A DNA stretch of 64,000 nucleotides, from assembly GCF_030013205.1 (NCBI RefSeq), contig NZ_CP122648.1, one strand, 5' to 3'. The number at the start of each line of letters is the position of its first letter. The stretch's first letter is position 1. This stretch comes from Escherichia coli (GTDB lineage Bacteria > Pseudomonadota > Gammaproteobacteria > Enterobacterales > Enterobacteriaceae). A program made the position numbers and the translations under genes. Below, in pieces: positions 4,711 to 5,179 of the stretch. A model generated the notes under the pieces. It worked only from the letters and a program-made list of their open reading frames with translations, ran no database searches and was not told the origin of the DNA.

Positions 4711-4870
4711 CAGCAGAATCCTTCTGGATAAATAACTTTCCCCTGTTTGGGGTCCATCCCTCTTCTCCCTGCGCGCTAACTAAGTAATATGATTCTATTT
4801 ACCCCTAACGGCCCCTCAAGAACCACAACCAACGGAGTACACAAAAAGCTAATCAACTACGCTACGCAAT

Positions 4871-4892
4871 AAAAAACCCGCCGAAGCGGGTT
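4871..4892 (-). terminator. rho-independent terminator downstream of hok
   Basis: Minus strand reads AACCCGCTTCGGCGGGTTTTTT: GC stem, TTCG loop, T-run. Confidence 0.6.
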
Positions 4893-4960
4893 AAGTGCGG
4901 GTGCGTTGAGGATGCCTGACACATCAGAGGTGGCGAGGGATTTCTCCCCCGCCAGGTCTC

Positions 4961-5116
4961 TTACTCCTCAGGTTCGTAAGCTGTGAAGACAGCGACCTCC
5001 GTCTGGCCGGTTCGGATTCGTACCTCGCAGAGGTCTTTCCTCGTTACCAGTGCCGTCACAATGACGGTTAAACAGATGACGATCAGGGCGATTAACATCG
5101 CCTTTTGCTGCTTCAT
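4961..5116 (-). CDS. hokD: Hok-family type I toxin (51 aa; HokD/RelF/Gef-like)
   Basis: MKQQKAMLIALIVICLTVIVTALVTRKDLCEVRIRTGQTEVAVFTAYEPEE matches Hok/Gef peptides as I recall them; the track ORF extends in-frame upstream from a TTG. Confidence 0.85.
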   Translation of the reverse strand: MKQQKAMLIALIVICLTVIVTALVTRKDLCEVRIRTGQTEVAVFTAYEPEE

Positions 5117-5179
5117 AGCCTGCTTCTCCTGTGTAAGTTCACAGAGATATTGCAATTACCTCCGGATAAGTAAGGGGAG

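Follow-up and report, generated by a model that had tools for sequence, protein, structure and literature searches.

The gene studied here, a hok-type toxin gene, lies in a 64,000-nucleotide (nt) stretch of Escherichia coli DNA (contig NZ_CP122648.1; hereafter the window), where an earlier reading made from the letters alone (the sequence-only reading) had placed a prophage hok toxin with a strong terminator at 4866-5155. Comparison with related loci indicates that this interval covers no more than the 3' half of a hokD-type hok/mok/sok locus, which an insertion sequence (IS) of the IS481 family splits in two. The antisense gene sok, the tac, ucb and fbi elements, the mok start and the terminator are all intact, divided between the two sides of the IS. 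The toxin open reading frame (ORF) is not contiguous with its promoter and leader on one mRNA of approximately 0.4 kb, with 1,095 bp of IS between them. Judged from its organization, the locus is best described as a hok/sok system disrupted by an IS and not as an intact member of the family, and hok is most probably silent, a disarmed toxin.

The IS sits exactly in the hok Shine-Dalgarno (SD) sequence, and the hexamer AGGAGA is duplicated on its two sides. The features of the insertion are given below.

5131..6225 (+), IS481-family insertion sequence of 1,095 bp, delimited by homology breaks, alignment to empty sites and other full copies.
5125..5130 (-), copy 1 of the target-site duplication, AGGAGA, still the hok SD, 8 nt before the ATG.
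6226..6231 (-), copy 2 of the target-site duplication, AGGAGA, still paired with the leader anti-SD segment UCUU (6250-6247).
5188..6261 (+), transposase ORF of the IS, 357 amino acids (aa), from the ORF list and Pfam (rve, rve_3, HTH).

Read on the minus strand, the canonical hok leader runs up to ...GGCAAGGAGA and is followed by TGTATGGGTCC...; the sequence ...GAACTTACAC, approximately 1.1 kb downstream, leads into AGGAGAAGCAGGCT and the ATG of hok. Both ends of the IS begin with TGTA, and its terminal inverted repeats are imperfect, each with an exact 11-nt core, ATATTGCAATT, at 5147-5157 and 6199-6209. The window contains a single copy of the element. Its transposase shows the Pfam domains rve, rve_3, HTH_32 and HTH_28, and the best NCBIfam model is transpos_IS481, matched over the full profile with 219.9 bits, 4 bits below the cut-off of 224; the Prokaryotic Genome Annotation Pipeline (PGAP) labels the gene as an IS481 family transposase. 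Within the element this ORF is not closed by any stop codon; it continues for 11 codons into the hok-leader DNA (6226-6261) and ends there at a TAG (6259-6261), and this borrowed stop region overlaps the -10 of the putative sok promoter. In another copy of the IS (L009), the transposase coding sequence ends 3 nt outside the element, and the stop seems always to be supplied by flanking DNA. Read-out from the transposase gene heads in the direction of sok in the window.

An empty site was reconstructed in silico by joining 6460..6226 to 5124..4850, which deletes the IS and one AGGAGA. The reconstruction aligned in one piece, with 98-99.2% identity, to uninterrupted loci in complete E. coli genomes, and at least 3,842 of 5,426 such genomes contain 80% or more of it as a single piece; uninterrupted counterparts were also present in approximately 100 lambdoid phages. 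A multiple alignment with strains 165 and CRE1540 showed no gap at the junction, and both strains carry a single AGGAGA. In the reconstruction, the ancestral mok is an ORF of 70 codons, in frame and continuous with hok. The junctions were further examined with 140-nt queries centred on each end of the IS. Homology ended exactly at 5130|5131 and 6225|6226, with thousands of genomes matching the hok or leader half only and others the IS half only. Matches spanning the junctions, which define the split allele, were obtained in 54 and 53 complete genomes. These approximately 54 carriers, K_EC180 and UMNF18 among them, come from pigs, dogs, primates, poultry and humans, and the DNA past the terminator varies among them.

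Full-length copies of the IS with the same termini, TGTATGG...CTTACAC, are also present at other sites, both chromosomal and on plasmids (ColV-type and others), in unrelated contexts and in up to 39 places per genome. A comparison of the flanks of six other copies or remnants with the same termini revealed no AGGAGA-like target and no clean duplication, and thus gave no evidence of targeting of hok or of SD sequences by the IS. Accordingly, one insertion that spread by prophage recombination is the more parsimonious explanation for the distribution of the split allele.

The hok side of the IS carries the following features.

4961..5116 (-), hok (hokD-type) toxin coding sequence, 51 aa plus stop, from ATG 5116-5114 to stop 4963-4961, based on the ORF list, Pfam and PHROG.
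4932..4953 (-), GC-rich hairpin GGCGGGGGAGAAATCCCTCGCC of the 3' untranslated region (3'UTR), directly after the hok stop, paired in the minimum free energy (MFE) fold of the reconstructed mRNA.
4899..4911 (-), fbi (fold-back inhibitory) element CCTCAACGCACCC, which is complementary to tac except for one C that bulges out.
4871..4892 (-), intrinsic terminator of the hok mRNA, stem AACCCGC / GCGGGTT, loop TTCG and T-run, based on a terminator scan and the sequence.

The translation of hok, MKQQKAMLIALIVICLTVIVTALVTRKDLCEVRIRTGQTEVAVFTAYEPEE, matches the Pfam family HOK_GEF (PF01848; E = 1.2e-23, 82.9 bits against a cut-off of 22) and PHROG 251, "MokW-like host killing" (2.8e-33). The protein is identical to K-12 HokD, the DNA differs from K-12 by one synonymous base, and PGAP labels the gene hokD in genomes that are 100% identical across the region. 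By its similarity, the gene thus appears to encode a genuine HokD membrane toxin of the Hok/Gef family. The codon TAC (Tyr47) is retained in its context GCTTACGAA at 4973-4981 (-); the equivalent Tyr codon in hokB is turned into Cys by adenosine-to-inosine editing by TadA, and similar editing is described for hokC, hokD and hokE (bioRxiv 10.1101/2025.08.07.668861). The terminator is also kept in the uninterrupted loci and in K-12 hokD, as seen from the alignment.

Several claims of the sequence-only reading can be assessed from these results. The 51-aa HokD/Gef-like toxin ORF agrees with the profile matches and with the identity to K-12 HokD, the strong same-strand terminator was found independently by our scan at 4892..4871 (-), and the neighbouring IS corresponds to the IS481-family transposase at 5188..6261 (+). 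None of these matches is of a strength that chance would give. The ORF list also includes an ORF of 64 aa at 5155..4961, which extends hok upstream to a TTG, and the earlier reading had doubted that this was the real mok frame. The doubt was right about the start codon, as the first 25 nt of the extension (5155-5131) are IS DNA, and we rejected this ORF as mok. It was wrong about the frame, as the ancestral mok is in the hok frame. Also rejected was a match to the Salmonella RNA isrK in Rfam at 4871-4952 (-), which scored 30.5 bits (E = 8e-4) against a gathering score of 50, and sub-threshold matches to rsmX and to snoRNAs (ceN48 and sR19), all under the gathering score. The isrK and rsmX matches are both driven by the hok 3'UTR hairpins, and isrK, which covers the 3'UTR hairpin and the terminator, is probably a structural resemblance only.

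The other half of the locus was recovered beyond the transposase gene, at 6226-6422. The coordinates of Sok and mok were transferred by alignment from the RefSeq-annotated sokC/mokC/hokC and sokB/mokB/hokB loci of K-12.

6394..6422 (-), hok promoter-like site TTGGCG-17-TAGAAT, from the promoter scan, kept in intact loci.
6376..6387 (-), tac element at the 5' end of the hok mRNA, GGGTGCTTGAGG, identified by the start of the Rfam match and by pairing with fbi.
6326..6333 (-), ucb (upstream complementary box, the anti-SD of mok), AGCCCCAG, from the MFE folds, with the definition taken from PMC9841398.
6283..6286 (-), mok SD, GAGG, paired with ucb in the fold of the reconstructed full-length mRNA.
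6095..6274 (-), truncated and fused mok' ORF with its ATG at 6274, consisting of 16 native codons and 43 codons of IS antisense sequence, from the ORF list.
6266..6342 (+), Sok antisense RNA gene of approximately 77 nt, from the Rfam sok match, with ends transferred from the annotated K-12 sokC and sokB.
6231..6259 (+), putative sok promoter read from the sequence, with -35 TTGCCT (6231-6236), a 17-nt spacer and -10 TAACCT (6254-6259).

The Rfam sok model (RF01794) matched at 6387..6220 on the minus strand with 109 bits (gathering score 59, E of approximately 1e-24), and the window holds only this one sok match and one hok. The promoter-like site places the first transcribed base at approximately G6387, where both the Rfam match and tac begin; tac itself is kept in all aligned hok loci. 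The mok start at 6274 aligns with those of K-12 mokC and mokB, and the mok' stop at 6095 lies 976 nt upstream of the hok ATG. Thus, overlap and coupling between mok and hok are not features of the present allele and are seen only in the reconstruction without the IS. Sok is complementary to the mok translation-initiation region, and its fold (-34 kcal/mol, z = -5.2) has a long hairpin between a single-stranded 5' tail and a U-rich tail. With the Rfam match and the alignment to sokC and sokB, this indicates at the sequence level that an antisense Sok gene is present opposite the start of mok. The putative sok promoter was not called by the strict consensus promoter scan; its -35 survives the insertion because its first base is the last base of the duplicated hexamer. 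The sequence-only reading had left it unclear whether Sok and the fold-back elements were intact next to the IS. All of the elements survive, but the locus is disrupted, and the promoter, tac, ucb, mok start and sok have been displaced by 1.1 kb to 6226-6422. That reading had also proposed an alignment to characterised hok/sok loci, with a remnant locus as the outcome that would count against it. The peptide aligns to Hok and no element is missing or degenerate, but a locus that has been disrupted comes close to that outcome.

Folding of the reconstructed 416-nt mRNA gave a structure of -173.9 kcal/mol (z = -8.6), and none of 100 shuffled sequences was as stable. The MFE fold is closed by a helix between fbi and tac, in which 4911-4899 pair with 6376-6387 over 12 bp with one bulge. 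Within it, ucb (6333-6326) pairs with 6288-6281, including the mok SD at 6286-6283, and the hok SD pairs with the upstream UCUU segment (6250-6247). The complementarity of tac and fbi is also found in other hokD-type loci, and in hokB with compensatory changes (tac GGGTGCCTGAGA, fbi TCTCATGGCACCC). The modelled fold is consistent with the closed, translationally inert architecture of the full-length hok mRNA known for plasmid R1 (PMC9841398). The IS falls between positions 162 and 163 of this mRNA, within the helix that masks the hok SD, and in the present allele tac and fbi are an extra 1.1 kb apart.

The conclusion that hok is most probably silent is based on the distance to the promoter, the loss of coupling to mok and the untranslated IS RNA between the two halves. 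The toxin gene now lies 1.1 kb away from the only promoter that can be recognised for it. Translation of mok is predicted to end inside the IS, 976 nt short of hok, so that translational coupling from mok to hok would be lost. The intervening RNA would be untranslated sequence antisense to the transposase gene, where polarity or termination is likely, and transcripts from the hok promoter probably end within the IS by polarity on this long untranslated antisense stretch. The scan also identified a terminator-like hairpin inside the IS on the hok strand, at 5697..5674 (-). No promoter-like site was found by the consensus scan on the hok strand between the hok promoter and hok, and reading of 5117-5200 for an outward promoter at the IS end yielded only poor hexamers. 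Production of Sok probably continues, driven by its own promoter and possibly also by read-out from the transposase gene, and this orphaned Sok may be left to act on the truncated leader or on other hokD-type loci in the genome.

Some observations weigh against silence. The hok-proximal AGGAGA is detached from its native anti-SD, and because of this separation a transcript that enters hok could be translated without mok and beyond the control of Sok. Possible sources of such transcription are read-through from the hok promoter, early prophage transcription on the same strand and a weak outward promoter in the IS. The undecayed hok ORF fits a recent insertion and a retained function alike. The local fold of the new hok leader, in which the SD pairs only weakly with IS sequence (z = -2.3), was not counted as evidence.

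A rival explanation is that hok is still expressed, as an orphan toxin independent of Sok, from an outward or antisense promoter in the IS, through read-through from its own promoter or through early prophage transcription, with its duplicated SD no longer masked by the native anti-SD. Such a gene would resemble K-12 hokD/relF, whose expression comes from the relBE operon, where it is the third gene. The SD and the ATG are intact with their 8-nt spacing, the upstream duplicate has kept the native anti-SD (UCUU, 6250-6247), and hok is read in the same direction as the early, nin and Q genes of the prophage. The Hok protein shows no decay, and the allele persists in approximately 54 genomes from varied hosts and prophage backgrounds. 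However, the scan detected no sigma-70-like site on the hok strand of the IS end, and a transcript from upstream would have to extend from the mok' stop to hok across approximately 970 nt that are not translated, including the internal terminator-like hairpin. The pairing of the SD with IS sequence, weak as it is, may also mask the SD. Moreover, Hok from a single chromosomal copy is lethal in the absence of Sok (PMC9841398), and a freely expressed allele should not persist. We consider continued expression unlikely, and favour a silent hok. Were hok still expressed, it would be relevant to prophage maintenance or induction in Shiga-toxin phages, and nothing here indicates expression.

The position of the IS junction coincides with that of a rearrangement in K-12. 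In K-12, hokD (relF, in the Qin prophage) is the third gene after relB and relE, and its homology to the intact loci starts at the A of AGGAGA, the base that also marks the IS junction in the window. The K-12 junction reads ...GCGTTGAC|AGGAGAAGCAGGCTATG (L002 2284-2300, compared with window 5125-5140), the intact locus ...GAAAGGCA|AGGAGAAG... and the window ...ACTTACAC|AGGAGAAG.... K-12 hokD shares with the window the SD, the 3'UTR hairpin, fbi, the terminator and the downstream genes rem and DUF968 (ydfU). It differs in that the 5' half (promoter, tac, mok and sok) is absent, with relBE in its place, whereas the window retains this half beyond the IS. Directly upstream of hokD, where relE would be located in a relBEF arrangement, the window has the IS. 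The K-12-type junction was found in 1,172 genomes, as compared to approximately 54 for the IS-type junction.

The shared breakpoint may be due to microhomology at the SD hexamer or to a shared history. A relBE donor that already carried ...ACAGGAGAAG upstream of another gene would explain it by SD microhomology. BLAST searches with the IS and with window 4400-8200 against K-12 1,643,000-1,648,000 identified neither an IS remnant nor the sok half in Qin, and no intermediate forms between relE and hokD were seen, the relE 3' flank always being joined to hokD in the rows sampled. Two further readings were considered jointly, namely that the IS-split allele shares its history with K-12 relBEF, with the hok SD as a recurrent breakpoint, or that the IS has rewired hok into a toxin with an unmasked SD. 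Even taken together, these two are improbable, clearly more so than the orphan toxin above. If the first were true, the IS event, or a site marked by it, would be the route by which relBE captured hokD. If the second were true, hok would be translated only when long early transcripts traverse the IS on induction, providing the Stx2e phage with a host-killing switch independent of Sok.

More doubtful still is a split locus that remains regulated through a 1.5-kb read-through mRNA, with tac at the 5' end, fbi at the 3' end and Sok acting at mok. In its favour, no damage is seen in tac, fbi, ucb, the mok translation-initiation region or sok, and each has the strand orientation that such a system needs. 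However, mok ends 976 nt before hok and the coupling that Sok uses (PMC9841398) cannot operate, the IS splits the helix that masks the hok SD, and transcription is unlikely to run all the way through 1.1 kb of the IS in the antisense direction. An assembly or chimeric artefact, or an origin of the sok half (6226-6422) from an unrelated second locus, can practically be dismissed, given that both junctions are identical in 53-54 complete genomes, that the halves rejoin to the base into a common uninterrupted allele with a perfect 6-bp duplication, and that one sok match and one hok are present in the window. We thus retain the reading of a disrupted locus in which hok is most probably not expressed.

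The disruption mainly matters for annotation. In the Stx2e-prophage genomes of enterotoxigenic and Shiga toxin-producing E. coli from pigs, "hokD" is annotated as a stand-alone gene beside an "IS481 family transposase", and sok, the mok start and the promoter are left unannotated 1.1 kb away. Surveys of hok genes would count the locus as a toxin and miss its disconnection from the control region. The locus is of value as a clean case, resolved to the base and with an empty-site control, which adds to the older observation that IS elements disable chromosomal hok loci and leave the toxin ORF untouched.

The prophage location given by the sequence-only reading was confirmed by comparison with the pig isolate K_EC180, as window positions 1-11,400 are 99.99% identical to its Stx2e prophage. 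In K_EC180, stx2eA/B are found just beyond the position that matches the left end of the window, and hok lies between the dicA/dicC-replication side and the DUF968-RusA-Q genes. Directly upstream of hok/sok is a SIR2-family gene at 6590-7549 (-), which is annotated in the identical region of K_EC180; strain 165 has a different gene in this slot, which suggests a variable prophage position for morons or defence genes. Approximately 10 nt upstream of the hok promoter, at 6430-6519 (-), we observed an unannotated hydrophobic ORF of 29 aa, MLVLKCALAIAAVVAIYCLAIVLMDRLSD, whose GTG start is preceded at a distance of 6 nt by a strong AGGAGG and whose 3' end is kept in uninterrupted loci. It had no match in Pfam, NCBIfam or PHROG, and its product may be a small membrane protein. 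An Rfam scan of the whole window detected two rdlD antitoxin RNAs of the ldr/rdl type I toxin-antitoxin kind (58983-59048 and 59518-59583, minus strand), two copies of STnc490 (37359-37482 and 60412-60535, minus strand), and two RtT elements and tyrosine-type tRNAs (42541-42850, plus strand). Chromosomal DNA thus forms part of the window as well, and it carries a second type I toxin-antitoxin family that is unrelated to hok/sok.

Close relatives of the locus are the uninterrupted hokD-type ("MokW/HokW-like", PHROG 251) loci of lambdoid prophages and phages, which are 98-99% identical to the window after removal of the IS. Their genomic position is the same too, with the replication genes on one side and the DUF968-RusA-Q genes on the other, and they differ from the window in having no IS and a single AGGAGA. 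The architecture is also that of hok/sok (parB) on plasmid R1, with a tac/fbi fold-back, ucb masking the mok SD, hok coupled to mok and an antisense Sok (PMC9841398). In contrast to R1, the ancestral mok of the window shares the reading frame of hok, as K-12 mokC does, and the locus is prophage-borne and currently disrupted. Prophages are enriched in hok genes (bioRxiv 10.1101/2025.08.07.668861). The Sok hairpin of the window has an 18-nt extension relative to sokC and sokB.

The K-12 chromosome offers parallels to the disruption. A passage of PMC1635323, which cites Pedersen & Gerdes 1999, gives the K-12 hok/sok loci as inactive. According to the RefSeq annotation, IS186A adjoins K-12 hokC, 20 nt from the hokC stop. 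Pedersen and Gerdes reportedly found in 1999 that hokC/gef and hokE carry IS186 and hokA carries IS150, near but outside the toxin ORF, and that hokD is truncated by a rearrangement. An element of the IS421/IS186 type was observed at the same position, in the GC hairpin just after the hok stop, in hokD of plasmid pTB211 (L014) and in K-12 hokC (L005), with the junction GGCGGGGAG.GATCCC|ATAAGCGC..., and this hairpin is a recurrent target of IS186-type elements; the corresponding hairpin of the window (4953-4932) is free of IS. The literature searched yielded no description of the IS481-hokD split allele. As in the IS-inactivated loci of K-12, the toxin ORF in the window is untouched and the locus is disabled by a nearby IS, which is of the IS481 type here and IS150 or IS186 there. 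The IS186 of K-12 hokC interrupts the 3' GC hairpin, with loss of fbi and the terminator, whereas the IS of the window occupies the hok SD, with the mok start on one side and hok on the other, and parts the toxin from the antitoxin by 1.1 kb, yet every regulatory element survives. The split locus is a new example of a known pattern, that of chromosomal hok loci disabled by an IS.

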